A stretch of 64,000 nt of DNA from NCBI GenBank assembly GCA_045636465.1, contig JAZTXP010000013.1, positions 24,686-88,685 on the forward strand, written 5' to 3'. Both the position numbers and the translations under genes were made by a program. The notes under the pieces were generated by a model. The model was given only the letters and a program-made list of their open reading frames with translations, made no database searches and was not told the origin of the DNA. The DNA is from Eubacteriales bacterium (GTDB lineage: Bacteria; Bacillota; Clostridia; Oscillospirales; CAG-272). Below, one piece after another: positions 1,002-60,383 of this stretch (positions within the stretch are counted from its first letter, which is position 1; each line of letters opens with the position of its first letter).

Positions 1002-2998
1002 TTTTCCACCTTCATAACGAGAGCGCTTCTGGCAGGAAGATATATATTGAAGCCTATTTTTCCACCATCTGTCTTTTTAGCATTATAAATCTCGCGAGCA
1101 ATTCTGCCGTGGCCGCCGAAGCAATAATCGTCGGTAGAAAGAACAGTTTTGTATTTTCCGCGAGGAAGGTTCTCGATAGTGTAATCGGGATAAGAGTTGT
1201 TAGGGCTGAAGTTGAAGGCGAATACGTAGTCACCTCTCCTGTATACCAAGACCTGCCTTTCGTTATCGTGAAGCACGTACTTTTCCTTTTTTTCAAACAG
1301 ACGTCCCTCTCTTATAATACCGATCATCGCCTTATCAAACTCGTTCATATACTCATATTGAAGCTGGGGATTATCAACAAGGCTCCACTGACGGCGGCAA
1401 TAGTAATGACTGAAGCCGTTACCCTCTCTCGGGAAGTCCAGCCACTCGGGATGGCCGAACTCGTTACCCATAAAGTTAAGGTAGCCCTCGCCTCCTGCAG
1501 TAGAAGTAAGAAGTCTTATCATCTTATGAAGAGAAATTCCGCGGAAGATAACGTCAGAGCCCGAGTCCTTCCTCATAGAGGTATACATCTCTGCGTCGCA
1601 AAGGCGAAAGATTATAGTCTTATCTCCTACAAGTGCCTGATCGTGAGATTCCGCGTATGCCACAGTCTTTTCATGTGGACGGCGGTTAATATGCTCCCAC
1701 CAGATCCAGCTCATATCCCACATCTCTGCGGGCTTATCCTTGATATGCTTTATCCAGAGATCGGGAAGTCCCATTGCAAGACGGAAGTCAAAGCCACATC
1801 CGCCATCCTTGATCTTCATGCACATACCGGGCATAGCCGACATATCCTCGGCTATGGTAATCGCGTGAGGATTGACCTCTCTTATAAGCTCGTTTGCAAG
1901 CTGAAGATAGGTGACAGCCTCTGTATCAGTATTGAGGGAGAAGTAATCCGCGTTGGATGTAAACGCCTTGCCAAGACCGTGATCGTGGTAAAGCATAGAT
2001 GTAACTCCGTCAAATCGGAATCCGTCAAAGTGATACTCGGTCATCCAGAACTTCAGGTTTGAAAGGAGGAAGTGGAGGACCTCGTTTTTATTGTAGTTAA
2101 AGAGCTTGGTATCCCAAGCGGGGTGATGGCCCTTAGCACCATCGTGGAAATACTGATAAGGCGTGGTATCAAACTCAAAGAGACCCTCGTTGGGATTCTT
2201 AATAGCATGGGAGTGAACCACGTCGAGAAGAACGGTTATCCCCATCTTGTGAGCGGTATCCACAAGGCTCTTCAGCTCATTGGGATCGCCGTAGCGGGAG
2301 GATGCCGCAAAGAAGGATGAAACCTGGTAGCCGAAGGAGCCGTAATAGGGATGCTCCATTATAGCCATTATCTGAATGGTATTATAGCCCTGCTCCTTTA
2401 TTCTGGGGAGGATATTATCGCGGAATTCCACGTATGTTCCTACCTTCTCCTCCTCCTGAGCCATACCCACGTGACATTCGTATATAAGCACGTTTTTATC
2501 GGGGATAAAGCCATCGTCCTGCCACTGATATTCGGGAAGGTCAACTATCTGGGCGCACCAAGCGTAGTTTCCCTTATCCTGAACTACCCTTCTTGCGTAT
2601 ACGGGAATTCTCTCAACGAATTTGCCATTTCCCTCAACTACGACCTTAACGTGACAGCCGTGGAAAAGATTCTTTTCTGGGGGCAAAACAAGCTCGAAAA
2701 CGCCGTTATCAAGACGGGTCATACGAAGATCGCGAGGCTCCCATCCGTTCATATCGCCGATGAGATAAAGGGCGTCTGCACCCGGCGCCCACTCTCTGTA
2801 GACCCAGGAGCCGTCCTCTCTTTTATGGAAGCCGAAATACTCGTGGGCATTGGCGAAATCAATAAGCCTTCCGCGCTTGCCAACCAGCTCCGCTTTCTTT
2901 CTCTTATAGTTCTCCATACGGAGATTTATATCTGCCTCAAACTCTAAAAGTCTGGGATCGTAATCAAAAATCTTTAATTTTCTGTCTTGAGTAGCCAT
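998..2998 (-). CDS. glgB: 1,4-alpha-glucan branching enzyme (GH13)
   Basis: Full-length similarity pattern to GlgB, with GH13 regions DVVHSH, GFRFDGVTSM, IAEDMS and ESHDQ. The track start at 3016 is a GTG. The ATG at 2998 is preceded by AAAGGAG with 8-nt spacing and is preferred. Confidence 0.9.
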   Translation of the reverse strand: MATQDRKLKIFDYDPRLLEFEADINLRMENYKRKKAELVGKRGRLIDFANAHEYFGFHKREDGSWVYREWAPGADALYLIGDMNGWEPRDLRMTRLDNGVFELVLPPEKNLFHGCHVKVVVEGNGKFVERIPVYARRVVQDKGNYAWCAQIVDLPEYQWQDDGFIPDKNVLIYECHVGMAQEEEKVGTYVEFRDNILPRIKEQGYNTIQIMAIMEHPYYGSFGYQVSSFFAASSRYGDPNELKSLVDTAHKMGITVLLDVVHSHAIKNPNEGLFEFDTTPYQYFHDGAKGHHPAWDTKLFNYNKNEVLHFLLSNLKFWMTEYHFDGFRFDGVTSMLYHDHGLGKAFTSNADYFSLNTDTEAVTYLQLANELIREVNPHAITIAEDMSAMPGMCMKIKDGGCGFDFRLAMGLPDLWIKHIKDKPAEMWDMSWIWWEHINRRPHEKTVAYAESHDQALVGDKTIIFRLCDAEMYTSMRKDSGSDVIFRGISLHKMIRLLTSTAGGEGYLNFMGNEFGHPEWLDFPREGNGFSHYYCRRQWSLVDNPQLQYEYMNEFDKAMIGIIREGRLFEKKEKYVLHDNERQVLVYRRGDYVFAFNFSPNNSYPDYTIENLPRGKYKTVLSTDDYCFGGHGRIAREIYNAKKTDGGKIGFNIYLPARSALVMKVEK

Positions 2999-3022
2999 AT
3001 CAAAAGCTCCTTTCACATAAAA

Positions 3023-6155: not shown

Positions 6156-7280
6156 TCAGAAGAGAAGATTCTGCTCTGTCTTGGGATCGAAGAAGTGCAT
6201 TACCTTACCCTCGAAGGTAACGTAAATTGTTGCACCTGCAACGAGCGCGTTTCTGATACCGTCATCAAGAGAAACAGTGGGAACACGAACGATGAGTCTG
6301 TCACCTGTTGCGGTTGCAACGTGGAGGTGAAGCTCGCTACCCATCATTTCATTAACCTCGATCTTGCAAGCGATTGCGCCGGGGTTATTCTTGTTGGTGA
6401 GCTTGATATGCTCGGGACGAACGCCGAGAATGATATCTCCGCCGCCAATATTCTTAGCTCTAAGCATATCTGCCTTCTTGCCGTCAACGAGGATCTTCGC
6501 GCCGTAAGCTGTTACGTAGTGGTGGCCACCCTCGTAATAAAGCTTGGAACGGAAGGTATTCATCTTGGGAGCGCCGATGAACTCAGCAACGAAGAGGTTC
6601 TTGGGCATATCGAATACCTCTGTGGGAGTGCCAACCTGCTGGATGAAGCCGTCCTTCATAATAACGATACGGTCACCGAGAGTCATAGCCTCTGTCTGGT
6701 CGTGTGTTACGTAAATGAAGGTTGTATCGATCTTCTTACGGAGAAGAATGATCTCTGCTCTCATCTGGTTACGAAGCTTTGCGTCAAGGTTAGAGAGAGG
6801 TTCGTCCATAAGGAATACCTTGGAGTCACGAACCATCGCACGGCCGATAGCAACTCTCTGACGCTGACCGCCGGAAAGAGCTCTGGGCTTTCTTGCGAGG
6901 AACTCGGTAATGCCGAGAATCTCTGCTGCGTTAGTAACCTTTGCATAAACCTCTTTCTGAGGCATCTTCTTAAGGCGAAGGCTGAACGCCATATTTTCAA
7001 ATACTGTAAGGTGAGGATAAAGCGCATAGTTCTGGAATACCATGGCGATATCACGGTCACGGGGCTGAAGGTCGTTTACAACAACGCCGTCGATCTCGAC
7101 TGTACCTTCAGAAATGTCCTCAAGACCTGCGATCATACGGAGAGTGGTGGACTTACCGCATCCCGAAGGACCTACGAAAACAATAAATTCCTTGTCGGCA
7201 ATCTCAAGGTTGAAGTCCTGAACCGCAACCGTATTCTTGCCGTATATCTTTTTAACATTAGTTAATTTTACTGAAGCCAT
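6156..7280 (-). CDS. Sugar ABC transporter ATP-binding protein (MsmK/MsmX/MalK family)
   Basis: 374 aa. Walker A GPSGCGKST, signature LSGGQRQR, Walker B FLMDEPLSNLD, and a C-terminal TOBE-like regulatory domain. Confidence 0.9.
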   Translation of the reverse strand: MASVKLTNVKKIYGKNTVAVQDFNLEIADKEFIVFVGPSGCGKSTTLRMIAGLEDISEGTVEIDGVVVNDLQPRDRDIAMVFQNYALYPHLTVFENMAFSLRLKKMPQKEVYAKVTNAAEILGITEFLARKPRALSGGQRQRVAIGRAMVRDSKVFLMDEPLSNLDAKLRNQMRAEIILLRKKIDTTFIYVTHDQTEAMTLGDRIVIMKDGFIQQVGTPTEVFDMPKNLFVAEFIGAPKMNTFRSKLYYEGGHHYVTAYGAKILVDGKKADMLRAKNIGGGDIILGVRPEHIKLTNKNNPGAIACKIEVNEMMGSELHLHVATATGDRLIVRVPTVSLDDGIRNALVAGATIYVTFEGKVMHFFDPKTEQNLLF

Positions 7281-7301: not shown

Positions 7302-8186
7302 TTAGCCCTTAACTGCGCCGCCTGTTACACCCTCAACGTAATACTTCTGAAGGAGAAGGAAGACGGTAACTACGGGGATCGCTACGATAACGCCCGCAGC
7401 ACAGAACATAGTATAGTTAGTGTTTACAATAGTTGCCGAAAGCCACTCGTGCATACCAACGGCAACGGTCATACCTGCGCTATTCTCGTGAATGAGGTAC
7501 TTAGCCATCATAAAGTCGCCCCAAGGAGCCATGAAGCCCATAAGTATGGTGTAAATGATGATAGGCTTGGAGAGAGGAAGGATAACCTTGTAAAGCACCT
7601 GGAAACGGGTAGCACCGTCAACTCTTGCAGCCTCGTCAAGGCTTCTGGAAATGGTATCAAAGAAGCCCTTGGATACGTGGTATCCCATACCGGAAGATGC
7701 GCAATAAACGATGATAAGACCGAGAGGAGCCTGCGCCTCAATAAGATGCAAGTCTGCAAACACCTTGTAAATAAGAATCATAGTAAGGAAGCCGGGGAAC
7801 ATGCCAAGAACAAGCATAAAGTTCATCAGGCCCTTTCTGCCCTTGAATCTCATTCTGGAAAGGGTGTAAGACATTGTAAGAACGAAGAATGTCTGAATGA
7901 AAGCGGTTGCAACACCGATTATAGCGGTATTGGAGAACCAGCTAAGGAAGTCGGTTTCATTGAAGAGTCTCATATAGTTATCAAGACCGAATTCCTTGGG
8001 GATAAGATATCCAACCATATCAGGACGCTCAACTCTGAAGGACTCAAGCACGATTCCGAAGAAGGGGAAGAGCCAAACTACAGTGATTGTAATGAGAAGG
8101 ATGTATATCAATGTATTACCAAGTCTTCTGCTTGCCTTTGCGCCGAGACCGGTTTTCTGGATGGTGGAGGTATTATTCTTTTTCAT
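7302..8186 (-). CDS. CUT1 sugar ABC transporter permease (MalG/GanQ-like)
   Basis: 294 aa, 6 TM, with an EAA loop (LDEAARVDGATRFQVLYKVILP). Confidence 0.9.
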   Translation of the reverse strand: MKKNNTSTIQKTGLGAKASRRLGNTLIYILLITITVVWLFPFFGIVLESFRVERPDMVGYLIPKEFGLDNYMRLFNETDFLSWFSNTAIIGVATAFIQTFFVLTMSYTLSRMRFKGRKGLMNFMLVLGMFPGFLTMILIYKVFADLHLIEAQAPLGLIIVYCASSGMGYHVSKGFFDTISRSLDEAARVDGATRFQVLYKVILPLSKPIIIYTILMGFMAPWGDFMMAKYLIHENSAGMTVAVGMHEWLSATIVNTNYTMFCAAGVIVAIPVVTVFLLLQKYYVEGVTGGAVKG

Positions 8187-9745
8187 TATCCGAAGTCCTC
8201 CTCATTCTTTGTTGAAGGAATTACGTTATAAACAATCAGTGACAGGAATGCTACTACTACGAAGATAAGGATACCGACAACCGATGCGTAGTAATACTTG
8301 GAGGAGGAACTTCCGAGAGTCATCTTGAAGAGCCATGTGATAAGCAAATCTGTGTGACCTACAGATGCGCCGCCTGCGAGACCCTTGATGGGGTTACCGC
8401 CTGTCAGAAGGTAGATAACGTTGAAGTTATTAAGGTTTCCTACGAAGCTTGTAAGAAGGTAAGGACCTGTTACGAAGAGCATGTAGGGAAGTGTAATTTT
8501 TGTGAACTGCTGAACAGAGGATGCACCGTCGATCTTTGCAGACTCGTAAAGATCCTCAGGAATGTTCATAAGAATACCGGTAGCCATAAGCATAATGTAA
8601 GGAATACCGATCCAAATATTGATAACAATAAGAAGGATCTTAGCGGTTACAGGATCACCCCAGAGTGTGTAGACGTGGTTTGCTACAAGAGACTCGGGAA
8701 GAAGGTTATTCACCTTAAGGAAGCTACCGATAATACCCGAAGCATCAAAGAGCTTGGATACGTAAAGGAGAGATACGAACTGAGGAATAGCAATGGTCAT
8801 AACCAGAACTGTTCTCCAGAACTTCTTAAGTCTGATGCCCTTCTTGTTAATAGCCATAGCTACGAACATACCAAGGAAGTAGTTAGAGAAGGTTGCAAAG
8901 AAGGACCAGATAAGTGTCCAGGAAAGGATCTCGCCGAAGGCAAGACCGAGACCGCCCTCACCCATATCAAAGATCTCGTTGAAATGCTCAAGACCTACCC
9001 AACCGAAGAGGTTAGCATAACCGTCGTGGGCGCCGTCATAGCTTGTGAAGGCAATGAGGGACATATAGATGGTAGGAATAACTGTGAATACAAGAATACC
9101 GATAAGAGAGGGAGCAAGAAGAGTCTTGTGGAACTGGTCGTCAAGAAGAGACTGAAGGTCTTCCTTGCCGCTCTTGATCTTCTTACCGCTTGCTACGATG
9201 TCCATACAGGTCTTGCACTGCTTAACCTGCATTCTCCATGTCATAATGAAGCCGATGATGAAGAATACTGTAAGCATACCGTAAAGGAGAACTCTTACAG
9301 AGTCGTCACCGGGAACTCTCTCATAAACGTCGTAGATGGGGTTGTAAACAAGTCCGCTCTGTACAGTACCGATGGTCTTACCAACCTGGAACCACTGTAC
9401 CTTTTTAAGCCAGTGAATACCGCCGCTGGGAACTACCATATAAATACCGAAGATTATTTCGAAGATAAGGAAGAGGATACCTCTGAGCTTCTGGCCGTAA
9501 TGAAGATTACCGAGACCGAAGATAAGGAAGGACCATCTTACCGATCTGTTACCTCTTTTGAAGGTATTGAATATGTCAACGATCTCGTCCTTTACCCATA
9601 CGAGAGCGGTTTTGATAATGCTGAACAGCTTGCAGATAAGCCCCCAGATCCAACCGGGTATGGATAAGAAGAACATCAATACGTCGTACATAAACGCTGA
9701 AAATTTATTCAGCTTTAAATACTGTAAATCATTAATTCTTTTCAT
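8186..9745 (-). CDS. CUT1 sugar ABC transporter permease (MalF/GanP-like, extended N-terminus)
   Basis: 519 aa with an EAA loop (LYESAKIDGASSVQQFTKITLP) and extra N-terminal TM helices, as in MalF-type permeases. Confidence 0.85.
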   Translation of the reverse strand: MKRINDLQYLKLNKFSAFMYDVLMFFLSIPGWIWGLICKLFSIIKTALVWVKDEIVDIFNTFKRGNRSVRWSFLIFGLGNLHYGQKLRGILFLIFEIIFGIYMVVPSGGIHWLKKVQWFQVGKTIGTVQSGLVYNPIYDVYERVPGDDSVRVLLYGMLTVFFIIGFIMTWRMQVKQCKTCMDIVASGKKIKSGKEDLQSLLDDQFHKTLLAPSLIGILVFTVIPTIYMSLIAFTSYDGAHDGYANLFGWVGLEHFNEIFDMGEGGLGLAFGEILSWTLIWSFFATFSNYFLGMFVAMAINKKGIRLKKFWRTVLVMTIAIPQFVSLLYVSKLFDASGIIGSFLKVNNLLPESLVANHVYTLWGDPVTAKILLIVINIWIGIPYIMLMATGILMNIPEDLYESAKIDGASSVQQFTKITLPYMLFVTGPYLLTSFVGNLNNFNVIYLLTGGNPIKGLAGGASVGHTDLLITWLFKMTLGSSSSKYYYASVVGILIFVVVAFLSLIVYNVIPSTKNEEDFG

Positions 9746-9917: not shown

Positions 9918-11462
9918 TTACTGAGCGATGAGCTCGATCTTTGCAGACTGCTCACCAAGAATGGTAAGACGAACAACGTATGTACCTGTTACGTCAACTA
10001 CACAGTTCTTTTCAGCGTTGAATTCGCCGTTAGCGCCGAAGTTAACAGTCCAGGAAGCACCCTGACGGCACTTGAATTCTTCACCCTGGTTGAGTTCAAG
10101 AGGAGCGGACTCGAATACGCCGGGAGCTACTTCTGTCATGCTGATATCTGTATCCCAGTTAGTACCGCAGATGTTACCGATAACAGACCAAGCTGCAAGC
10201 TCTTCGGGAGTCTTCTCGAAGATAGCGTCGATTGTATCTGTGTATGTGTCAAGAGAAGCCTGAAGATCTGCATCAGTCTTAGCGTTCTTTGCGTCTGCGC
10301 CAAGAACCTTAGCGATATCCCACCAAGAGCCCTCGATCTGGCCCTGAGGTCTACCGTAAGCGCCCTGAAGTGCAAGAGCTGCAAGAGACTTGTTAGCCTG
10401 AACCTCGGGAGACTGCTGAGCTGCCTTGTTAGAGGGACCCCACTGATACTCGTTGTATCTAGCCATCTGGCACTCTTCGTTAGTGAGCCACTGAGCAAGG
10501 AGGTGAAGAACTGCATTCTTCTTGGAATCTGTCTGAGGCTTAACACCCATAAGCTTGTTACCTGTGAAGGAACCAAGGTGGTAAGACTGACCGTCAACTG
10601 TGAAGGAAGGAAGATCTGTAGCACCAAGGTTTGCGCCGAAGTGCTCTGCAGCTGCGTTAGCATTCCAGATACCTGTTACGATAGCGCCAGCGTTGGTGAA
10701 GATATCAGCGTTGGAGTCGTAGCAAGAGGACTGAGCGAGCTTCTGCATACCCTTCATAGCAACGAGACCCTCGGGAGAGTTGAAGGTATCGTTTACGGAA
10801 GTGAACTTACCGGTCTCATCCATTGTCCACTCGGAAACGCAACCTGTTGCGAAGAAGAAGGAAGCGGTGTACCAAGCGTTCTCGAGAGCGTAACGGAAGG
10901 TCTTGCCGTTTGCTTCGCAAGCAGCGATGATGTCTTCCATGCTTTCGGGATTGGTGATGATGCTGGTATCATAGTAGAGATAGTAGCCGTTGTCGGAAGT
11001 CATAGGATAAGCGTAGAGCTGACCTGCAACTGTACCTGCAGCAACGGAACCTGCATCGTTGTTAGCCTTAACTGTGTTAGCAGCAGCTTCACCGAGAGGT
11101 GCAAGAGCGGAAGCCTGTACAAGACGAGCGAGCTGGTCCTGTGCGAAGCAGTAGATGTCGGGAGCGGATGCAACGTCGGTAAGAACCTGACCTGCAGCGT
11201 TAGCCTCGGAAACGCCCTCGATGGAAGCGTTGATTACGATACCGGGGTTAGCAGCCTCGAAAGCATCGATCTGCTGAGCTGTGAGATCAGCAACGCCTGC
11301 GATCTCGGAAACCCAAAGGGTTACGTCGTATGTACCTGCGAGCTCGTTGTCGCCACCGTTGTCAGGACCATCGCCAAAGATATCCTTAAGCCAGTCACAG
11401 GATGTCATGCTGAAGAGCATAACAACAACGAGAATAAGGGAAAAAATCTTACTCATTTTCAT
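9918..11462 (-). CDS. Extracellular solute-binding lipoprotein (CUT1 family, MalE/GanS-like) with an extra C-terminal beta-rich module
   Basis: 514 aa. Lipobox LFSMTSC. The body resembles family-1 sugar SBPs. The last ~95 aa (WSVIGNICGTNWDTD...GEEFKCRQGASWTVNFG...) form an additional aromatic-rich module. Confidence 0.9.
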   Translation of the reverse strand: MKMSKIFSLILVVVMLFSMTSCDWLKDIFGDGPDNGGDNELAGTYDVTLWVSEIAGVADLTAQQIDAFEAANPGIVINASIEGVSEANAAGQVLTDVASAPDIYCFAQDQLARLVQASALAPLGEAAANTVKANNDAGSVAAGTVAGQLYAYPMTSDNGYYLYYDTSIITNPESMEDIIAACEANGKTFRYALENAWYTASFFFATGCVSEWTMDETGKFTSVNDTFNSPEGLVAMKGMQKLAQSSCYDSNADIFTNAGAIVTGIWNANAAAEHFGANLGATDLPSFTVDGQSYHLGSFTGNKLMGVKPQTDSKKNAVLHLLAQWLTNEECQMARYNEYQWGPSNKAAQQSPEVQANKSLAALALQGAYGRPQGQIEGSWWDIAKVLGADAKNAKTDADLQASLDTYTDTIDAIFEKTPEELAAWSVIGNICGTNWDTDISMTEVAPGVFESAPLELNQGEEFKCRQGASWTVNFGANGEFNAEKNCVVDVTGTYVVRLTILGEQSAKIELIAQ

Positions 11463-11514: not shown

Positions 11515-11543
11515 TATTATAACACCATTAGTCAATTTTGTCA
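11515..11543 (-). promoter_or_regulatory. Consensus sigma-A promoter for the ABC importer operon
   Basis: On the minus strand: TTGACA (11543-11538), 17-nt spacer, TATAAT (11520-11515). AGGAGG RBS before the ATG at 11462. Confidence 0.65.
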
Positions 11544-11671
11544 ATAAGAATAAGCTTAAATTCTTCATTTTCGGCGTTTTGTACAAACTGCCCTAACATT
11601 TTTTTAACATATTGACAAGTGTTTTTTTACCTGCTTTTACGTTTTAATGAATTTTTATGCGTTTTCGTTAA

Positions 11672-12766
11672 TTATTTGAATTCATCGAAGGCAGGAAGCC
11701 TTCTTCCCTCATAGTCGAAAAGGCACTGATTTGCCCACTCGTTATGGGTGGATTTCCCTTCCTCGTGAATATATCTCTGCCCTGCCTCGGACGCCCAGCA
11801 TATTCCCTCTCCGGGAAGCCAGATAGGCTCCCAGTAAAATACGCCGTCAATGCTCTCCTCACGAGCGCGTTTCATAATATAATGTATGAAATCTCGCTGT
11901 CCCTCGGGGGTCATGGGATAAACGTCGGTGAAGCCGGGAACACGGGAGAGAGATTCGTCAACCACAAGGCGGCATTCCTTTCCTTTAAGGAAGTATCCCT
12001 CGGTGGTAAAGCCGTATCCAAGCTCAGCTATCATAATCTCCTTGCCGAAGCGGCGGCAGGCGCGAAGGTTATCGAAAAGCTCCTCGGGGAGTCCGTGCCA
12101 GAAGGGATAATAGGATGCGCCGATAACGTCAAAATCAACGCCCGCGCGTTCCATTTCCGAGAAGAACTCCTGATAAACCTCTTTATCGTTGCTTCTCTCA
12201 AGGTGGAGCATTATTTTTGCCTCGGGAAGAAGCTCTCGGCAGGCTCTCGCTCCTGCGGAAAGAAGCTTCGTTAAGTTCTCGTAGTTACCTCTCTTACCGT
12301 CCACCTCCAGCTTTCCTACCGGCCAGAGAATGCCGTTGGTGATCTCATTTCCCACCTGGATCATCTCAGGAGCGACTCCCTCTCGGATAGCCGTCTCAAG
12401 ACACCCACGGGTGAAGCCGTATACCGCATCCACAAGCTCGTCAAGGCTGTAATCTGCCCAGGCCTTGGGAATGAACTGCTTGCCGGGGTCTGCCCAGAAA
12501 TCGGAATAATGGAGATCCATATAAAGGTGGTAACCTTTAGCTTTAGCTAACTTACCGAGTTTTACGTAATTTTCAATGTCGGCAGTACCGGCAAGATAGG
12601 GCTCGCCCTCGGGACTGTAGGGGTTGTTCCACACCCTGATTCGCATATAATTTACTCCGTTTGCCACAAAGGCATCAAGGGGATCTATCTCGGATGAGCC
12701 GTCGTAGTATTTTGCGCCGTTTTCCAGCTCCTCAAGATAGGTAGATGCGTCAATTCCAAGTATCAT
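11672..12766 (-). CDS. Arabinogalactan endo-beta-1,4-galactanase family protein (GH53), cytoplasmic (no signal peptide)
   Basis: 364 aa with GH53 signatures (VNYMRIRVWNNP, LHYSDFWADPGKQ, VGNEITNG, AELGY). Starts directly with MILGIDAS and has no leader peptide. Confidence 0.85.
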   Translation of the reverse strand: MILGIDASTYLEELENGAKYYDGSSEIDPLDAFVANGVNYMRIRVWNNPYSPEGEPYLAGTADIENYVKLGKLAKAKGYHLYMDLHYSDFWADPGKQFIPKAWADYSLDELVDAVYGFTRGCLETAIREGVAPEMIQVGNEITNGILWPVGKLEVDGKRGNYENLTKLLSAGARACRELLPEAKIMLHLERSNDKEVYQEFFSEMERAGVDFDVIGASYYPFWHGLPEELFDNLRACRRFGKEIMIAELGYGFTTEGYFLKGKECRLVVDESLSRVPGFTDVYPMTPEGQRDFIHYIMKRAREESIDGVFYWEPIWLPGEGICWASEAGQRYIHEEGKSTHNEWANQCLFDYEGRRLPAFDEFK

Positions 12767-13023
12767 TGCTCGCCTCTCCTGTGAGGTATGAATTTCGGAG
12801 GCTCGTTATCCTCTCCAAAGTCAACCACGCGCATCTTCATTGCGCGGTAGCGGTATCTTGCCGCCTCGTTAAGACGGAGAACGTCCTCTTCTTTGCCTGT
12901 AAATCCGCAACGGAGACAGTAATACTCGCTCTTCTCGCCGTCAAAGAACATATCGATATCGATATCTCTCATAAAGCATGAGGGACATCTGAAGTTTAAT
13001 TTACCTTTTGAAGCCTGAGCCAT
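12763..13023 (-). CDS. Small CxxC...CxxC zinc-ribbon protein, function unknown
   Basis: 86 aa containing CPSC and CLRC pairs. Strong RBS GAAGGAGGAG 7 nt upstream of the ATG at 13023. Start lies inside the end of the 601-aa gene, and the stop overlaps the GH53 start (ATGA). Confidence 0.6.
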   Translation of the reverse strand: MAQASKGKLNFRCPSCFMRDIDIDMFFDGEKSEYYCLRCGFTGKEEDVLRLNEAARYRYRAMKMRVVDFGEDNEPPKFIPHRRGEQ

Positions 13024-14801
13024 GTCTTTACTCCTCCTTCGCTGATAGTTTTCTTTGTAGCAAGGTGGTATACGGGGGAGAAGGCTATTCCCTCCTCCAC
13101 CAAAGCCTCGTCGTTATCGCCGCCCATTTCAACCACCGTCATAACCTCGGGGATCTCAACGTAGGCGCGGCTTGCGTTTTTGCCCACAATCTTCTTTCCG
13201 TGGTAGGAGAAGGGCATACTCTCGCCGTCAACGCCGAGGGTGATATTAGTCATATCTGCCTGATACTCGGTAGTGCCGAAGCCGCCGGTGAAGTATTCCT
13301 CAAAGGTTACAGACTCGCCACCGAGGTCATTCTTTATGATACGCTCGGTGATAACCTCGCCCTTACCATCATAGATGGTAAATCTAGACTCAACCACAAC
13401 TTCGAGACCGCCGAGATCAAGGGTTACGGGGTTAGTGATGATACGCACGCCGCCCTCTATTCTCTCAAAGCGAGCCATAGTTCTTGTAAGGCAAAGATCG
13501 GCGCTGACGCCTCTTGCGCTTACCTTGCAGGACTTGATAGTACCTGCTCCCGCATAGTGGGTGAAGTAGCCCGCGCGGTAGTTGATCTGAATAAGGTAGG
13601 GGTGGGATGCATCGTAAACGTTATCTGTGCCGATGCCGGTTTTCTGAGGAATTCTCGCAATATAGGGGCGAAGGTCGATCATCGCGCCGCCCTGATTGAA
13701 GTCGAAGCAGGTTCTCATAGCAGGGTCTGCATACCAGAAATACTCCTTCTCGCTTCCGTAAAGGATGTCCTTCCACATAGCGCACTCGCCGCGGGAGTAA
13801 TCCTTGTGGCAGGAGCGATAGAAATCGGCAAACTCGCTCATAGTCATATCAATGAGCTTGCCCTCCTGCTTCAATTTACCGTAATACTTCATTCCGTCGT
13901 CGTAGGACTTGGCAAGAAGCTCGTAAGGAGCCTCCCAGCGGCCGCGCTTATTAAGCCAGCCCGGACCTACGAACATCATATTGTAGCTGTATCCGTCGTT
14001 GTACTTGCCAAGATGGCGGTACTGGTCAACGAGATTGTAAAGATAGGGATATTCAAATTCGCCCTCGTCGTTATAGTAAATCATACCGCGGAGAACGTTC
14101 TGAGGATGAGTTCCAAAGTTAGAGCCGTTTCCGTCAAAGCAAGCCATAAGGTCACGGGAAAGATGAGGAATTGCAACAATGCCGGAGTCATCGTCAGCAT
14201 CGGATGCGGGGCAATGGGAATTTACCTTAGAGGGAATCCAAGGATTCCAAGGGCCGCCGTCCATAAAGGTATACCAAGAGTTATTGCAGGTATGGAAGGC
14301 CTTGGGACCCTCCTCCCAACAAGTAGCTACCGCGCACTTTACGGATGGGTATTTTTCCTTGATATAGTTGATGGTATAAGCATCAAGGAAATAGGAGCTT
14401 GTGGACTCGGGATAGAAGCCGAATTTCTCATAGAATTTACCGAAAACGTCATCGATAATTTCTGTCTTTGTAGCCTCGTCAAACATCCAGATGCAGAAGT
14501 CCTCTGTCTTATACTTCGCTCTGAACTCGGGACAAGGAAGGCCGAGAAGGGAAAGTCCTATCTCGTCTCCGTACTTCTCATGCTCCTCCTTTGCAAGGTC
14601 GATGATCACATCGGAGAAAAGGGATGCGTAAGTGATCTGAATAGTGGTCTTAAGACCGTATTTATGGGCAGTGTCCTGCTGGAAGCGGAAGATGTCAAGA
14701 GACTCATCTCTCACGCCCTTCGCCCCGCCGAGGGCCTTCTCCGCGTACTCGGGAGAAAGCTCGGGGCGATGAATAATATTTACAACAAATTTGTTATTCA
14801 T
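12996..14801 (-). CDS. Uncharacterised 601-aa cytoplasmic protein in the glycan locus (candidate novel glycoside hydrolase or accessory enzyme)
   Basis: Long ORF with coding-like composition, no signal peptide, embedded between GH13 and GH53 genes. I cannot assign a family by eye. Confidence 0.7.
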   Translation of the reverse strand: MNNKFVVNIIHRPELSPEYAEKALGGAKGVRDESLDIFRFQQDTAHKYGLKTTIQITYASLFSDVIIDLAKEEHEKYGDEIGLSLLGLPCPEFRAKYKTEDFCIWMFDEATKTEIIDDVFGKFYEKFGFYPESTSSYFLDAYTINYIKEKYPSVKCAVATCWEEGPKAFHTCNNSWYTFMDGGPWNPWIPSKVNSHCPASDADDDSGIVAIPHLSRDLMACFDGNGSNFGTHPQNVLRGMIYYNDEGEFEYPYLYNLVDQYRHLGKYNDGYSYNMMFVGPGWLNKRGRWEAPYELLAKSYDDGMKYYGKLKQEGKLIDMTMSEFADFYRSCHKDYSRGECAMWKDILYGSEKEYFWYADPAMRTCFDFNQGGAMIDLRPYIARIPQKTGIGTDNVYDASHPYLIQINYRAGYFTHYAGAGTIKSCKVSARGVSADLCLTRTMARFERIEGGVRIITNPVTLDLGGLEVVVESRFTIYDGKGEVITERIIKNDLGGESVTFEEYFTGGFGTTEYQADMTNITLGVDGESMPFSYHGKKIVGKNASRAYVEIPEVMTVVEMGGDNDEALVEEGIAFSPVYHLATKKTISEGGVKTWLRLQKVN

Positions 14802-14852
14802 ATTTTGATATATCTTCGTTTTTTTGTGGTTATTTGTGAAGTTTGGTTTACA

Positions 14853-16475
14853 TTATTTAAGGATTACAGTTGTATAAGCAGGAACAGTGATAAGGTTGCC
14901 GTTAAGAGACGCTTTACCTGTTCCTACGTAATCGCAAAGCTCGTTAATACCCTTTCCGTCAAGAGCCTTGCATCTTGTCAGATCGTATGTAAGCTCAGAG
15001 CCTGAGGTATTGTGGATGATAACAAGGTACTCGCCGTTGTACTCAACGAGGAAGCCGCCGAGCTTGGTGTTTCCGCAGCTGATCGCGGTGTAATCACCTC
15101 TTGCGATAGCAGGATACTTATGTCTGATAGCGAGAACCTTTACGTAATGGCTGTAGACGCTGTTTTCGTCAGCAACCTGATCCGCAGCAGTGGTCTTGAT
15201 CTGCTTATCGGGGGAATATGTAGTTCCAACGGGGTTTTTGGGGGTATATTCGCTTCCCCAGAGCATTGCAAGTCTGCGGTTTGCGTCGGTAGCTTCGCTG
15301 CCTCTGGAGCCTCTCATGCCAAGCTCCTCGCCGTAATATATAACGGGAGTACCGGGAGCAAGGAGATAAAGGCTTGCTGCCATCTTGGTCATATTTTCAT
15401 GGATGAAGGCACCGCCGATTCTATCCTGGTCGTGGTTAGACAGGAAGAGAGAAACCATAGCGTCGGGATTCTTGGACTCTACCATATTCTGATAGTTTGC
15501 GATATATGCCGCATAACTGTACACATTTTCAATACCCTTTGCAGTGTTAGCAATCTTATTTGCGCCGCCTGCTGTAGTGAAGTTAAAGCAGTTCATCGCG
15601 CCGTAATACTGAACGACCTCGTTATCAGCGGACCAGCATTCGCCTATGGCATAAACGTCGGGCTTATATTTGCGAAGCTCTTCCATATACCACTCCCAGA
15701 ATGCAACCGATCTTGTGGTATCGCCATAGTAAATGTATTTGATAGCGTCGAAGCGGAAGCCGTCAACACCCAGGTCGAGATAATACTTTGCAACGTTGAG
15801 CATTTCCTCTCTTACCTCGGGGTTATCGTAGTTAAGCTCAGGCATATCGCTGGTGAAATTACATTCGTAGTACCAATCAACACCTGCTATCTTTTGATAT
15901 TCACGGCCGTTTGGCTGGGTTGATCCTGTGGCGCAGGAATAATAATCGTAATATTTATTTGTGGTATCCCCGTCCGTACGTGCCTGCTTGAACTGAAGGA
16001 ACCATTCGTGCTGGTTAGAGGTGTGGTTGATAGCAAGGTCAAGTATAAGCTTAACGTTACGGGAGTGGCAAAGGTTTACGAGCTCAACGAGATCCTTTTC
16101 CTCGCCGAAGCGCCAGTCAAGCTTGTAATAGTCCTTCGCGTCATACTTATGATAGGAAGGAGACGTGAAGATGGGAGAGAGCCAGATGCCCTGCACGCCA
16201 AGGTCATTGCCGGAGTTGATGTCTCCGTCGTTGAGATAATCGAAGTTATCAATGATGCCGCGGATGTCGCCGAAGCCATCCTTATTAGCATCTGCAAAGG
16301 AGCCAACGAAGATCTGATAGAAGGTTCTGTAGTTATCTGCAATAGGATCTACCATAGGAGGCTCCTTATCCCCTCCCAAGATCTTGTCAAGAAGCTCACA
16401 GGAGGTAAGAGTGGTAAGCGATACGCCGAGAAGCATTACCGCCACAAGAAGGAATGATACAATTCTTTTAGTCAT
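14853..16475 (-). CDS. Alpha-amylase family (GH13) lipoprotein
   Basis: 540 aa. Lipobox LTTLTSC. GH13 regions DLAINHTS, GVDGFRFDAIKY, AIGECW and FLSNHDQDR. Confidence 0.9.
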   Translation of the reverse strand: MTKRIVSFLLVAVMLLGVSLTTLTSCELLDKILGGDKEPPMVDPIADNYRTFYQIFVGSFADANKDGFGDIRGIIDNFDYLNDGDINSGNDLGVQGIWLSPIFTSPSYHKYDAKDYYKLDWRFGEEKDLVELVNLCHSRNVKLILDLAINHTSNQHEWFLQFKQARTDGDTTNKYYDYYSCATGSTQPNGREYQKIAGVDWYYECNFTSDMPELNYDNPEVREEMLNVAKYYLDLGVDGFRFDAIKYIYYGDTTRSVAFWEWYMEELRKYKPDVYAIGECWSADNEVVQYYGAMNCFNFTTAGGANKIANTAKGIENVYSYAAYIANYQNMVESKNPDAMVSLFLSNHDQDRIGGAFIHENMTKMAASLYLLAPGTPVIYYGEELGMRGSRGSEATDANRRLAMLWGSEYTPKNPVGTTYSPDKQIKTTAADQVADENSVYSHYVKVLAIRHKYPAIARGDYTAISCGNTKLGGFLVEYNGEYLVIIHNTSGSELTYDLTRCKALDGKGINELCDYVGTGKASLNGNLITVPAYTTVILK

Positions 16476-16497: not shown

Positions 16498-18504
16498 TTA
16501 TTTTACGGAGTTAAGCATAGCGTCGTCAATCTTGCCCCAAGCGCCGTTTCCTGCGCCCTCGCACTTGACGTAAATACCAACAGTAAGAACGTCGCCCTCG
16601 GCAACGGTAATGTTAGAAATAGTCGCTGTGTGCCACTCATTGTAAACAGTTATTGTCAAATCTGCGGTTTCTACCACCTCTCCGTTGATCTTAACGTAGG
16701 AGTAGATCTCTGTTGCGCCGCCGTCGCCACCCATAATGGAGATGGTGTAATTATAGAGACCGGCCTTAAGATTTTCAACGGTCTGCTCAAGCTCAAACTC
16801 AACGGCTCCCGAGCCCCAGAAGTGATAATGGCGATTGCCCGTGATAGAGTCGGTGATCTTATCCTCAACGTAAAGCTCGTCGAAGGTCTTGATAGCATTT
16901 ACTGTCCAACCGTCACCGAGAGGATCATCCTCAAAGCTCCAGTTCTTAAGGAAGTTGTATTCAACCATAGAAACGTAGCAGGTAGCCTCCATACCGCCTG
17001 CAACACCCTTGATGGTATACTTAGCGGGGCCGTTACCCTTCATAGCTGCCTCGTCGTAGGACTCCCATACAACGGGAACTGCCTGCTTGGAGTTATCAAG
17101 CATAACCGCATTAACTGTCTCGGGAAGTACGATATCGCCGTTAAGGTCGACGATGAGGGTCACGTCCTCGATAGCGTCAGGCTTATTCTCTACAACGTTT
17201 CCGTTTTTCATAAGAGAGAATACCTTAAGCGATTCGATAGCCTCGCCCTTTTCATTGAAGAACGCCTGGTTTTCTACCGCGCATCCGCCGTAATACTTAC
17301 CTGCATCGCCGGGATCGTATTCACTGGCATAGGAGGATGCCCAGCCCGAGCCGTACTTTTCCCACTTCGCAGAGTTCTCTTCCCAGCTGGTAGTACCAAC
17401 GGAGATCCAAGTACCTTCCCAATAGAAGATACCGATACAGTCGGTCATGCCGTTAACGCAAGCATCAACAACATTGCGAACAAGATTTGACTGACCCTGA
17501 ACGGTGTAAGGATAATCCTTTGTAACAACGCTTCCATCGCCGATGGTGTTGCCGTTGAAGTCGGTATCAGCGGAGGTATAAGCATAGGAAACCTCTGCAA
17601 CCATTACCTTTTTACCGTAGTTCTTGGTTATATCGTTAAGAACGGTTGTAAGGTTCTCAAGAGTGCCGTGCCAATAGGGATAATAAGAGGAAGCAAATAC
17701 GTCGTAGTCAACCTGCTGAGCTGCAAGATAGTAGGCGTAGTTCTTATAATTGGTAACCTTTTCGGGGTTAGCGAAGTGAACTGCAACAAGGGCGTGAGGG
17801 AATACCTCTCTTGTAGCCTTGGAGCCTGCGTTCATAAGCTTCGCGATATTTGCCCAGGACTTTTCACCGCACATATAATTGTTAGTCTCGTTACCAATCT
17901 GAACCATACCTACGTCAACGCCCGCCTCGGAAAGCTTCTCAAGGCATTCCTTGGTGTAGTTATAGAGAGCCTCTGCCTTCTCGTCAACACTCATGCCCAC
18001 CCAAGCCTTGGGAACCATCTGCTTTGCAGGGTCAGCCCAGAAGTCGGAGTAATGGAAGTTTACAAGAAGCTTAAGGCCGTACTCTGTAGCGCGCTTACCG
18101 ACTGCAATAGCATTCTCGATATCGCAGTTACCGCCGCCGTAGCCGTTGCCCTTGGCATCGAAGGGATCGTTCCAAACGCGAACGCGTATGTAGTTGATGC
18201 CATTCTCGGAAAGGATCTCGTAAACGTCCTTTTCTGTGCCATCATAGTCGTAGTACTTTACGCCGCTGGCTTCAAGGGAGGGAACGCAGGATGCATCCAT
18301 ACCCATAATGAAATTGTCGGAAAGGTTGTCAACCTTTTTAACGTAAAGCGAATCTGACGTTACGTTGGTTTCGATAGCGTTAGGCTCCCAAGTAGGCTCA
18401 TCGCCTCCAAGGATATCGCGGAAGAAATCTTCACAGGAGGTCAAGCTGAAGAGCATCGACACGATAACCGCAAGCAAAATCGCTTTTGTTCTGAATTTTT
18501 TCAT
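16498..18504 (-). CDS. Extracellular arabinogalactan endo-beta-1,4-galactanase (GH53) lipoprotein with C-terminal Ig-like and CBM-like domains
   Basis: 668 aa. Lipobox FSLTSC. GH53 motifs (INYIRVRVWNDP, FHYSDFWADPAKQ, IGNETNN, AEVSY). Followed by a Big-like segment (VPVVWESYD...YTIKG) and a jelly-roll-like C-terminus. Confidence 0.9.
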   Translation of the reverse strand: MKKFRTKAILLAVIVSMLFSLTSCEDFFRDILGGDEPTWEPNAIETNVTSDSLYVKKVDNLSDNFIMGMDASCVPSLEASGVKYYDYDGTEKDVYEILSENGINYIRVRVWNDPFDAKGNGYGGGNCDIENAIAVGKRATEYGLKLLVNFHYSDFWADPAKQMVPKAWVGMSVDEKAEALYNYTKECLEKLSEAGVDVGMVQIGNETNNYMCGEKSWANIAKLMNAGSKATREVFPHALVAVHFANPEKVTNYKNYAYYLAAQQVDYDVFASSYYPYWHGTLENLTTVLNDITKNYGKKVMVAEVSYAYTSADTDFNGNTIGDGSVVTKDYPYTVQGQSNLVRNVVDACVNGMTDCIGIFYWEGTWISVGTTSWEENSAKWEKYGSGWASSYASEYDPGDAGKYYGGCAVENQAFFNEKGEAIESLKVFSLMKNGNVVENKPDAIEDVTLIVDLNGDIVLPETVNAVMLDNSKQAVPVVWESYDEAAMKGNGPAKYTIKGVAGGMEATCYVSMVEYNFLKNWSFEDDPLGDGWTVNAIKTFDELYVEDKITDSITGNRHYHFWGSGAVEFELEQTVENLKAGLYNYTISIMGGDGGATEIYSYVKINGEVVETADLTITVYNEWHTATISNITVAEGDVLTVGIYVKCEGAGNGAWGKIDDAMLNSVK

Positions 18505-19844: not shown

Positions 19845-21761
19845 TTATCTAGCTTTGATATCTTTTACGATATGGCCTTCCTCACCGTAGGGAACGGAAA
19901 GGTCCAAAACGGTAACTCCTCTGTCATTTACAAGATAGAAGTATCCGTCTCTTAAAATGCCGCGAGATCCTGTTGGCATTCCGTAATAATTGTTGAATTC
20001 CATTACGGAAACCACGTTCAGGTCATAGCCGTCAAACTGAAGAAGGACGTAGCTACTTCCGTATTTGGAATCATAATCAACACCGAAGCCAAAGAGATTT
20101 TCCTCTCTATTGATGAAGTAATCCTTATAGTTCTCGCTGTATCTGCCGTCAAAGATAAACTCGGCAACGGAAACCACCTGACCTGCCTGCTCCTCGTAAA
20201 CCTCGACCTTGCACTGAGACCAATTATCTCTGCCTATGCCGAGAAGGAAGCCCTCGCCAAGATTGATAAGAGAGGTGGAGAAGCCCTCGATGACTCCCGT
20301 GTCGGTGTAGGTAATGTTACTGTAATCCGAGAGGTCGAAGAAGAATACGGGGTCTGTGAAGGTGACAACAACCGCGGTGCAAACGTAGAGAGTATCGCCG
20401 TCAAATCTCACCGATGCAACTTCTTCACCCTGGGGAGCAAAGTCCTCAACAGAGGCAACAGTGCTGCAGCTTGAGAGATCAACTATATAAAGGCTGGCGC
20501 TTTGAGTAATGATAGGAAATGAACCAAAGTCGTTTTTATCGGCGCGCTTATTTGTAGAGGTAACCACTCTTAAGTGTCCTTCCCTCTCGTCAATACTGTA
20601 CTGATTAAGAACCGAGCCCGAAACGGTAATTACCTGTCTTTCAAGACTGCCCTCGGTGTAGCCGAGAACTGCAATATCGGTCTTTGTCTCGATGATAATT
20701 TTGTTATCCTCAGTCTTTGTTTCGTCTGTATACTCTCTTGTAACGTATACGTTATTTTCAGAAACATATACGGTATCTGTAAAGTTAAGTAGTCCATTTG
20801 CGCCTGTTATCTCACGGCTACCAATATCTATGGATGCAACAACTGTGTATCTTGATGCATTAACACCGTCAGGAGCAAAAATCTCATCCATAGTGAGCAG
20901 GGAGTCCTCTCCGTTCCTTGTAACGGTAGGAACATAGGTGTGGGGATCGTCATAATCAACGTTGTGGATAGCAAAATAATACTCGCTCATCAAGAGAAGC
21001 TTATCTCCTACAAGTCTTGATGTGTTATAGTCACCGTCAATAGAGAGCATGCCACTAAAGGAAGGATTGGCGGGATCGGCAACATCCAAAAAGATCACCC
21101 CGACCCGCCCCTTATTATCGCGAGTCGTATAATCAATAACTATGATCGCGGTCTTGCCATCAGCGGTGAGATACATTTCATGTTCATTATAGCTCTTTGC
21201 ATCTAAAACCTTCTTAATATCGAAGATTGCTGTTCTCTCAGTGTTTTCGCCGTTAAGCTCGTAAATCATTATATTGCTGTATGAGTAATGGAAAAGATGA
21301 GTTGTCGTAGTTTTTATGAGATCGCCCTCGATAACGCCCGAAACCTGGTTATCTGTGGTCTCAACATACTCGCTGCCCGCTCCCATCATATCTTCCTCCG
21401 GAACCATAGGCGACATTACGTCAGTGCCGCCGATGAACAATCCTCTGAAAATAGTTCCAATGAGTGATAGTATAAGCTCAAAATTGTTATCGAACGGTAA
21501 AGCCATAGCTTCTTGTCTGTAGGGCTCGATGACCTGGATGAGGGAGTAATACTCCGAATCCTCGTAGGGTGTGGTGTTGATTCTATTGTTATTCAAGGGA
21601 AGGAATAAGAACAGAGCCACGCCAATGAGGATAATAAATCCCGCTACCTTTTTCCAGATTGGTTTTCCGTTTGCCGTCTTTTTCATTTTGCCGCTTGCCT
21701 CCTCAATAAATTTTTCATTAATATTTCCCATTGCGTAAATAAGCTTTTCTTCTTTTCTCAT
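19845..21761 (-). CDS. Single-pass membrane protein with a large extracellular beta-propeller domain (putative anti-sigma/sensor partner of the upstream ECF sigma factor)
   Basis: 638 aa. Short cytoplasmic N-terminus (NINEKFIEEA), one TM helix (VAGFIILIGVALFLFL), then a long beta-rich region resembling the Firmicute/archaeal 'beta propeller domain' family. 4-nt overlap with the sigma gene. Confidence 0.75.
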   Translation of the reverse strand: MRKEEKLIYAMGNINEKFIEEASGKMKKTANGKPIWKKVAGFIILIGVALFLFLPLNNNRINTTPYEDSEYYSLIQVIEPYRQEAMALPFDNNFELILSLIGTIFRGLFIGGTDVMSPMVPEEDMMGAGSEYVETTDNQVSGVIEGDLIKTTTTHLFHYSYSNIMIYELNGENTERTAIFDIKKVLDAKSYNEHEMYLTADGKTAIIVIDYTTRDNKGRVGVIFLDVADPANPSFSGMLSIDGDYNTSRLVGDKLLLMSEYYFAIHNVDYDDPHTYVPTVTRNGEDSLLTMDEIFAPDGVNASRYTVVASIDIGSREITGANGLLNFTDTVYVSENNVYVTREYTDETKTEDNKIIIETKTDIAVLGYTEGSLERQVITVSGSVLNQYSIDEREGHLRVVTSTNKRADKNDFGSFPIITQSASLYIVDLSSCSTVASVEDFAPQGEEVASVRFDGDTLYVCTAVVVTFTDPVFFFDLSDYSNITYTDTGVIEGFSTSLINLGEGFLLGIGRDNWSQCKVEVYEEQAGQVVSVAEFIFDGRYSENYKDYFINREENLFGFGVDYDSKYGSSYVLLQFDGYDLNVVSVMEFNNYYGMPTGSRGILRDGYFYLVNDRGVTVLDLSVPYGEEGHIVKDIKAR

Positions 21762-22318
21762 AAATAAATATCCTCTCTTTCCAGACGTTCCTTTAACAAA
21801 GCTCTCATTCGGCTTAGCGCCACTTTAACCGCAGAGATGCTAACTCCCGTCTCGTCGGAGATCTCTCCGATAGAGCGCATAAAGAAGTATCTTTTCACAA
21901 AAATAATGCGGTTTTGGCTTGAGAGCCCCGAAAGGAATCTATTAAGACAATCGCGAATGGCAATATCCTCTGCCGTATCTCCTGCGGGCGCGGGAATACA
22001 CTCCGCAAGCTCGTCGAGAACTGCCTCGGCAACAAGATTTCTCGTCCTTCTCTTATTTTGATTGTACCTACTGAAGGAAATATTCCTTACGATCTTCGAG
22101 AGAAAAGCGGAAAAATATGTAGGCTTAGCAGGAGGGATTGCTCCCCACGCGCTCATATAGGTATCGTCAACGCACTCCTCCGCATCGGGAGCAGAATGCA
22201 AAATTCCATAGGATATCCCAAAAAGCAGCTTACCGTATTTCGCCTTGGTTTGCTTGATAGCTCTCTCGTCTCTTGCAAAATAGAGGTCGATTATTTTGTT
22301 GTCATCCACGATCATCAC
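21758..22318 (-). CDS. RNA polymerase sigma-70 family, ECF-type sigma factor
   Basis: 186 aa. Region 2 (LFGISYGILHSAPDAEECVDDTYMSAW) and region 4 HTH (MRSIGEISDETGVSISAVKVALSRMR). The exact start (GTG 22318 or ATG 22315) is uncertain. Confidence 0.9.
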   Translation of the reverse strand: MMIVDDNKIIDLYFARDERAIKQTKAKYGKLLFGISYGILHSAPDAEECVDDTYMSAWGAIPPAKPTYFSAFLSKIVRNISFSRYNQNKRRTRNLVAEAVLDELAECIPAPAGDTAEDIAIRDCLNRFLSGLSSQNRIIFVKRYFFMRSIGEISDETGVSISAVKVALSRMRALLKERLEREDIYL

Positions 22319-60163: not shown

Positions 60164-60383
60164 TTTGTTTTTTACCTCTTTCTTTTTTTCGGTATTTTTC
60201 ATTAAAAAAAGCAATTTATGAATTGAAGTTTGCCTTTTGGGGGTTCGCCGAAATACATAAGTTGCTCGCTTTAACTAGTCATTTACCGTATTTTATTATA
60301 TCATATTTAATAGTTTTGTCAACATTTTTAATATATTGTTAACAATTTATTCACACTTTTTTGGCTCATTTTACTATATCGAA

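Follow-up and report, generated by a model that had tools for sequence, protein, structure and literature searches.

A gene pair without a database family in gut Firmicute galactan loci, a strong candidate for a new carbohydrate-enzyme family with a zinc-ribbon partner

The closest described counterpart of the locus studied here is ganSPQAB of Bacillus subtilis, which combines an extracellular GH53 enzyme, a MalEFG-like (CUT1) ATP-binding cassette (ABC) importer and a GanS-like binding protein with the intracellular processing of galacto-oligosaccharides. In a 64-kb stretch of a Eubacteriales genome (contig JAZTXP010000013.1; hereafter the window, meaning the whole stretch of DNA that was analysed), we examined a locus that shares these three components, and whose relatives in other genomes also carry LacI, GH42 and Leloir genes. 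The locus differs from ganSPQAB in that it has no GH42 and adds a cytoplasmic GH53, a GH13 alpha-amylase lipoprotein and two adjacent genes, one for a protein of 601 amino acids (X601) and one for a zinc-ribbon protein of 86 amino acids (Zn86). The pair belongs to a ganSPQAB-like system without being one of its canonical genes. We give a probability of about one half to the reading that X601 as the large and Zn86 as the small subunit make up a single carbohydrate-active enzyme of the cytoplasm, which here would act on imported galacto-oligosaccharides and complement GH42. The two proteins may well define a carbohydrate-enzyme family of their own; what is new is a family within a known enzyme superfamily that is covered by no Pfam or NCBIfam model and has an unusual, apparently obligate zinc-ribbon subunit, and for which we infer the function. 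The pair and the gene that follows it are:

12996..14801, minus strand: X601, 601-aa cytoplasmic protein with no family match in the Pfam, NCBIfam and PDB scans
12763..13023, minus strand: Zn86, 86-aa CxxC…CxxC zinc-ribbon protein (C13-x2-C16, C36-x2-C39)
11672..12766, minus strand: cytoplasmic GH53 endo-beta-1,4-galactanase, 364 aa (Pfam PF07745, E = 1.5e-91, residues 2-363)

The 3′ end of the X601 gene and the 5′ end of the Zn86 gene overlap by 28 nt (12996..13023, minus strand), and a Shine-Dalgarno (SD) sequence, GAAGGAGGAG (13031..13040, minus strand), lies within the X601 gene and is separated by 7 nt from the Zn86 ATG that follows it. The TGA of Zn86 overlaps the ATG of the 364-aa GH53 gene as ATGA (12763..12766, minus strand). 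The gene order, the overlap, the ribosome-binding site and the ATGA junction could all be read in the sequence as a preliminary description of this DNA had reported them, and the 28-nt overlap points to translational coupling of the two genes. Of 81 related pairs, 79 keep an overlap of 28 nt and two have one of 25 nt; in 77 of the 81 loci an SD-like motif stands ahead of the Zn gene. In distant loci, where X identity falls to 22-45 %, a gene for a 62-77-aa CxxC…CxxC protein overlaps the X 3′ end in eight of nine cases, by ~11-31 nt. In addition, two natural fusions of 671 and 676 aa, P0187 (Verrucomicrobiae) and P0192, carry the ribbon at the C-terminus of X. Since Rosetta-stone fusion is combined with universal translational coupling, X and Zn probably act as one unit. 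The preliminary description had proposed that X601 works with the zinc-ribbon protein, and the conserved overlap, the co-occurrence down to 22 % identity and the two fusions argue for this proposal and suggest that Zn86 is an obligate partner of X601. The 815 homologues of Zn86 show that it is a real gene, and its four cysteines and P14 are invariant in a 12-sequence alignment of diverse partners and fused domains. The P0187 fusion gene (locus L085, Verrucomicrobiae, GCA_028687435.1, 1-7085) adjoins genes for GH42/GH42M-domain proteins of 1185 and 1301 aa. A Zn86-GH42 fusion considered in another related locus (L065) was rejected, as a stop codon is present.

The open reading frames (ORFs) of the window were scanned against Pfam (2025), NCBIfam (June 2026) and PDB sequences (by phmmer), and homologues were taken from a collection of 5.8 billion proteins. 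X601 had no match in Pfam (even at E ≤ 10), in NCBIfam or among PDB sequences; the protein was called unassigned in the preliminary description and it stays so, with no known non-carbohydrate enzyme family among its matches either. X601 has 2598 homologues (493 clusters at 50 % identity) and is therefore a real gene, and all of the top 120 homologues with a source name are labelled 'hypothetical protein'. The family is also not covered by the work of Helbert 2019 on new GH families.

An alignment of 31 full-length family members with 22-59 % identity showed that E80, E164, G165, G182, W185, P190, R216, R238, Y253 and N268, and further along R363, D376, R378, G389 and P401, are invariant, while the near-invariant residues include D140, C161, E163, H213 and D217. 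No histidine is invariant among the 31 sequences, and H213 is the only one conserved in at least 90 % of them. The motifs CFEEG, EGGPWxPWxPS, PHLxRD and GGAIxDLRPY recur in the family. The N-terminus leads directly into strand beta1, and since none of the 31 members has an N-terminal extension, the family is taken to be cytoplasmic. A 665-aa antisense ORF (13008..15005, plus strand) that is open across all of X601 was rejected as a shadow ORF, as it is not conserved: opposite the X601 relatives the antisense open run has a median of 171 codons and is shorter than 300 codons in 59 of 81.

The AlphaFold2 model of X601 built from this alignment (pLDDT 91.4, pTM 0.92) consists of a 7-stranded beta/alpha barrel (residues ~1-283), a helical linker and a mutarotase-like beta-sandwich (residues ~339-601). 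When this model was compared with the PDB by Foldseek, the matches ranked in the order 3LM3, GH57 (1k1x/1k1w), mutarotase-fold proteins, and then GH38 and CE4. The top match, 3LM3 (E = 1.9e-15, TM-score 0.69 normalised to target, rmsd 4.3 Å), is BDI_3119 of Parabacteroides distasonis, a DUF3863 + DUF3864 protein which was deposited as a 'putative glycoside hydrolase/deacetylase' and is itself uncharacterised. X601 has the same fold, and both proteins have an EGGPWxPWxPS-like motif, at which the X601 family profile matched the 3lm3 sequence weakly (E = 0.0097 over 40 residues); however, 3LM3 has 449 aa against the 601 aa of X601, and the two are only 15 % identical. PF12979 (DUF3863) gave weak matches in two of the 31 family members (E = 0.0036), and X601 itself had no PF12979 match, staying below the Pfam gathering score.

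The second-best match was the GH57 4-alpha-glucanotransferase of Thermococcus litoralis (1K1W/1K1X, E from 2e-14 to 7e-12), in which, as in X601, a (beta/alpha)7 barrel is followed by a helical segment and this by a C-terminal beta-sandwich. Colinear local resemblances, an FG..P before strand beta4 and a PSK segment, were found partly by eye. In contrast, the GH57 family model PF03065 matched neither X601, even at E ≤ 10, nor any of the 31 diverse relatives, and the genomic context of X601 is beta-galactan. The substrates of GH57 enzymes are alpha-glucans or alpha-galactosides, and none of these enzymes is known to have a zinc-ribbon subunit. GH38 and CE4 belong with X601 to the 7-stranded barrel superfamily, and GH38 also has a mutarotase-like C-terminal domain, but its TM-scores to X601 are low (0.15-0.27), and no GH38-type His/Asp metal site is apparent in X601, with only one near-invariant histidine across the family. 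The mutarotase-fold proteins matched the C-terminal half of X601 only (E ~1e-8). A mutarotase function of this domain was rejected, because residues 339-601 contain no invariant histidine and there is no Pfam Aldose_epim match; to the extent that the epimerase option of the preliminary description would depend on a mutarotase-type C-terminal domain, it is disfavoured.

X601 is thus structurally like GH57, GH38 and DUF3863, yet outside the sequence membership of each, and it therefore represents a family of its own, with the two-domain build of GH57 and GH38, in the 'glycoside hydrolase/deacetylase' superfamily of 7-stranded beta/alpha barrels. The predicted GH57/GH38/CE4-type fold is consistent with the earlier suggestion that the 601-aa protein is a carbohydrate enzyme. 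In the model, conserved polar residues stand at the C-terminal strand ends, namely H11/R12 on beta1, D140 on beta4, E163/E164 on beta5 and H213/R216/D217 on beta6, and would lie on the usual catalytic face of such barrels.

We scanned one genome per GTDB species with a 9-sequence alignment, and 593 of the 600 matches listed encode a relative, so that the X601/Zn86 pair occurs in at least 593 species-level genomes. For the best 80 loci of these at least 593 relatives, with 61-90 % X identity, the neighbourhood of ±10 kb was examined. Their hosts are gut Clostridia, Oscillospiraceae, Christensenellaceae, Erysipelotrichaceae, Bacilli and Lachnospiraceae, among them two cultured strains, Bacterium D16-36 and Lachnospiraceae bacterium 10-1, whose locus lies at ~382-404 kb of KE159799, and a metagenome-assembled genome of Acetatifactor muris. 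A cytoplasmic-type GH53 gene lies directly 3′ of the pair in 57 of the 67 loci with enough sequence, which shows that the triplet, whose conservation the preliminary description had proposed to check, is kept in related genomes. Any GH53 was found within ±10 kb in 70 of the 80 loci, and an ABC importer adjoins the pair in most loci. Loci of the Lachnospiraceae type have the gene string LacI-SBP-MalF-MalG-X-Zn-(GH42)-GH53 (SBP, solute-binding protein), with GalK, GalT, GalE and a second, secreted GH53 nearby.

The 364-aa GH53 of the window has no signal peptide, its residue 2 aligning with position 1 of the Pfam model. Its best PDB match is 7osk (3.7e-69), and the alignment spans the GNE and AE(L/T) segments, which contain the catalytic glutamates of GH53. 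It is unusual for a characterised system to have a cytoplasmic GH53, and to this extent the earlier remark on its oddity stands; in the loci with X601/Zn86, however, it is the rule. Taken together, the pair is best read as a core component of the Firmicute beta-1,4-galactan utilisation locus in this clade.

The preliminary description had suggested that the pair may stand in for the beta-galactosidase of such loci. Spelled out, X601/Zn86 would be a non-orthologous replacement of an intracellular GH42 or GH2 enzyme and would split galactobiose or galactotriose into galactose. The absence that led to this proposal was borne out, as the large ORFs of the 64-kb window, two of which have no Pfam family at all, gave no GH2, GH35 or GH42 match in Pfam, and the translational coupling of the pair to the cytoplasmic GH53 also fits such a role. 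X601 itself had no Pfam match to a GH42-, GH2- or GH35-type domain (clan GH-A, (beta/alpha)8), its predicted barrel being 7-stranded and of the GH57/CE4 type. Among the relatives, GH42 matches are limited to two loci (L023 and L028) and to Lachnospiraceae-type loci with 61-62 % X identity, and the only GH2 match was weak and partial, at the edge of one locus (L011). Those large ORFs without a family that were scanned contained no GH2, GH35 or GH42; GH35, having no probe of its own, was not searched directly. Displacement would nevertheless lead one to expect mutual exclusion, whereas a GH42 is present in the same locus in 15 of the 80 relatives (two of them Clostridiales with 76 % identity), and in five of these 15 (L057, L061, L065, L071 and L076) it lies directly between Zn86 and GH53, inside the same gene string. 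GH42-like genes also adjoin two distant members of the family (L085 and L089), and the known glycosidases of this fold (GH57 and GH38) act on alpha-linkages. Since GH42 is present alongside the pair in 15 loci, the pair does not appear to replace it, and we regard displacement as rather unlikely. X/Zn is the more constant element in these loci and GH42 the variable one.

A metagenome scan for distant X/Zn subfamilies gave only 13 loci. Across the distant loci examined, the neighbours of X/Zn are:

L084: GH28, GH43, GH36, GH2 and GH123
L085 and L089: GH42-like
L086: RG-I lyase-like
L088: pectate-lyase-fold and CE2
L090 and L105: GH63-like
L091: GH92, GH28, GH78 and CE4
L093: GH28 and a polysaccharide lyase, behind a TonB receptor
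L097 and L098 (near-identical loci): GH26 and GH5, with an apiosidase-like gene on the other side of X in L098
L099: GH16
L101: GH5

These distant family members stand in pectin, mannan and other loci without GH53. Judged from such gene neighbourhoods and from the N-termini, the X/Zn family appears to be polyspecific and cytoplasmic.

A family that is found in loci for several glycans would also suit a substrate-agnostic modification, in which X601/Zn86 would leave glycosidic bonds intact and, as a CE4- or YdjC-like esterase or deacetylase or as an isomerase or epimerase, make imported oligosaccharides ready for cleavage by the true glycosidases. The CE4 deacetylases 3qbu and 3rxz were among the Foldseek matches (E ~1e-5, TM-score ~0.6 normalised to target), the deposition title of 3lm3 includes 'hydrolase/deacetylase', and CE2, GDSL or CE4 genes are near the distant members L088, L090, L091 and L105. 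However, the Asp-His-His triad that defines CE4 is absent from X601 in the 31 sequences, in which only H213 reaches 90 % conservation, and PF01522 had no match. In addition, acetyl groups are not known on beta-1,4-galactan side chains, and a second esterase would be redundant beside the dedicated esterases that adjoin some of the distant members. We consider a conditioning role of this kind unlikely.

A further alternative starts from the other genes of the galactan locus, every one of which, including the pair, is on the minus strand. Besides the coupled triplet, the locus contains:

16498..18504, minus strand: surface GH53 endo-galactanase lipoprotein with Big_4, 668 aa (Pfam PF07745, E = 2.7e-120; lipobox LTSC)
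14853..16475, minus strand: GH13 alpha-amylase lipoprotein with SusG_C, 540 aa (Pfam Alpha-amylase, E = 2.6e-78; lipobox LTSC)
11516..11544, minus strand: perfect sigma-70 consensus promoter-like site, TTGACA-17-TATAAT with TG (sequence scan)
9918..11462, minus strand: lipoprotein SBP of the ABC importer, 514 aa (Pfam SBP_bac_8)
8186..9745, minus strand: MalF-like ABC permease, 519 aa (domain scan)
7302..8186, minus strand: MalG-like ABC permease, 294 aa (domain scan)
6156..7280, minus strand: MsmK/MalK-type ABC ATPase, 374 aa (Pfam)

Pfam thus agrees with the neighbours named in the preliminary description, a secreted GH53, a GH13 lipoprotein, a cytoplasmic GH53 and an ABC importer. The GH13 lipoprotein gene is directly upstream of X601, with a gap of 51 nt, and the PDB matches of its product are the alpha-amylases 7jjt, 9fz2, 7jjn and 1wza. 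A GH13 resembling it was found in 33 of the 80 related loci. In the clade of the window, the surface GH53 and the GH13 lipoprotein are a conserved adjacent pair (loci L004-L051) that stays together even when relocated, and this pair is often preceded by a pullulanase and GH77; a pullulanase is adjacent in 14 related loci and GH77 in 11-12. Because the surface GH53 and GH13 travel together, often with pullulanase and GH77 ahead of them, the locus of this clade is a mixed starch/galactan locus with one shared MalEFG-type importer.

X601 could then be a divergent GH57-type alpha-glucan enzyme that serves the starch half of the locus by acting on imported maltodextrins. Its second-best structural match is an alpha-glucan enzyme, its gene directly follows that of an alpha-amylase, pullulanase and GH77 are neighbours in the loci just counted, and the permeases are MalF/MalG-like. 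Against this, GH53 accompanies the pair in more than twice as many of the 80 loci as GH13 does (70 and 33), and in most of the loci with 61-62 % identity it is GH53, GH42 and Leloir genes that accompany the pair, whereas only four of these loci have a GH77 and one has a GH13. Moreover, the distant members are found in pectin and mannan loci, no clear conservation of the GH57 motifs is seen, and Pfam gives no GH57 match, so that an alpha-glucan enzyme is very unlikely.

It is more improbable still that the pair is a non-enzymatic sugar-sensing or regulatory module, in which a pseudo-enzyme domain binds the ligand and the zinc ribbon with its Arg-rich tail contacts nucleic acid or protein: the Zn86 profile resembles TFIIE/TFIIB-type ribbons (E ~0.01), an Arg/Lys-rich helix follows the Zn86 ribbon and the window locus has no dedicated regulator gene, but this ribbon similarity is generic, the loci of relatives already have LacI or AraC regulators, and invariant carboxylates and arginines are on the canonical catalytic face of the predicted barrel.

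We therefore return to the reading of X601/Zn86 as one cytoplasmic enzyme of two subunits. From the gene structure, fold, family size, synteny, fusions and co-occurrence with GH42, we infer a physical complex of the two proteins, together with its catalytic residues, its substrate and its reaction. In the proposed pathway, the surface GH53 would cut galactan, the MalEFG-type ABC importer would take up the galacto-oligosaccharides, and in the cytoplasm the signal-less GH53 and X601/Zn86 would process them further. The most likely chemistry of X601/Zn86 would be cleavage of a glycosidic bond, with hydrolysis preferred over phosphorolysis or transglycosylation. The candidate catalytic groups are D140, E163/E164 and H213/R216/D217 at the ends of beta4-beta6, and a loop from the beta-sandwich domain with R363, D376 and R378 would also take part, while the zinc ribbon would have a structural role as the small subunit. 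The four arginines that are invariant may contact hydroxyl groups or an anion, for instance phosphate, and in view of the latter the pair may still be a phosphorylase. No beta-1,4-galactan phosphorylase is known. In the galactan clade, a candidate step for X601/Zn86 is the exo-cleavage or phosphorolysis of beta-1,4-galacto-oligosaccharides, or the removal of a substituent that is beyond the reach of GH42 and GH53. More tentatively, X601/Zn86 may found a new polyspecific family of glycoside-cleaving enzymes (hydrolases or phosphorylases) with an obligate zinc-ribbon subunit, of which the galactan clade would perform an unassigned step of beta-1,4-galactan catabolism in gut Firmicutes.

Several results weigh against the enzymatic reading. 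The fold is common to the CE4 deacetylases, which are not glycosidases, so that the hydrolase chemistry of X601 is unproven. Neither the nucleophile Glu of GH57 region CSR-3 nor the DDGEKFG motif of CSR-4 is recognisably conserved in X601; an hhalign comparison of the X601 family profile with one GH57 protein gave a probability of 1.3 %, and in that weak alignment the position of the GH57 nucleophile is not acidic in X601 and D140 is 2-4 residues off. In the model of a natural fusion, the pLDDT of the Zn domain is only 61-83. Because the neighbours of the distant members are very different, ranging from GH28 to an apiosidase-like gene, the substrate cannot be transferred across the family. Finally, the literature that was searched had no relevant paper on DUF3863, DUF3864, BDI_3119, PF12979, 3LM3 or such a pair, nor on hypothetical proteins of galactan loci.

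Some further features of the window concern the genes around the pair. The SBP matched GanS (2.7e-13) better than MalE (8e-7) in NCBIfam, but both scores are well under the cut-off and GanS is a weak best name. The promoter-like site agrees with the sigma-70 consensus at 12 of 12 positions, has an extended -10 TG and lies within the 205-nt gap ahead of the SBP gene, and the importer genes may have their own promoter and be transcribed separately from the enzyme genes. C-terminal regions of ~150 aa in the SBP (residues ~362-514) and in the surface GH53 (residues ~505-668) are outside every Pfam model and may be carbohydrate-binding modules. A GlgB-type branching enzyme (CBM48 + GH13; 998-3016, minus strand) is encoded ~3 kb past the importer ATPase gene. 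Immediately upstream of the galactan locus is a gene pair (19845-22318, minus strand) in which a sigma-70-like gene, of ECF type as judged by eye from its translation, overlaps the start of a 638-aa Beta_propel (PF09826) gene. Another large unassigned protein of the window is encoded by a 776-aa ORF (51155-53485, minus strand) without a match in Pfam, NCBIfam or PDB sequences, a few kb from an MFS_2 sugar-type transporter gene (58604-60214).

Galactan and pectin side chains are major dietary fibres, and the pathways by which Firmicutes use galactan and pectin have been annotated by analogy with Bacillus and Bifidobacterium. In the loci described here, an unannotated pair is more constant than the textbook GH42, and it reaches other phyla, where it lies in pectin and mannan loci. 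Characterisation of X601/Zn86 would probably establish a new CAZy-type family. It would also bring to light a glycan-processing enzyme whose zinc ribbon is a subunit of its own, which is rarely seen, and would sharpen the functional annotation of thousands of gut-metagenome sequences now labelled 'hypothetical proteins'.

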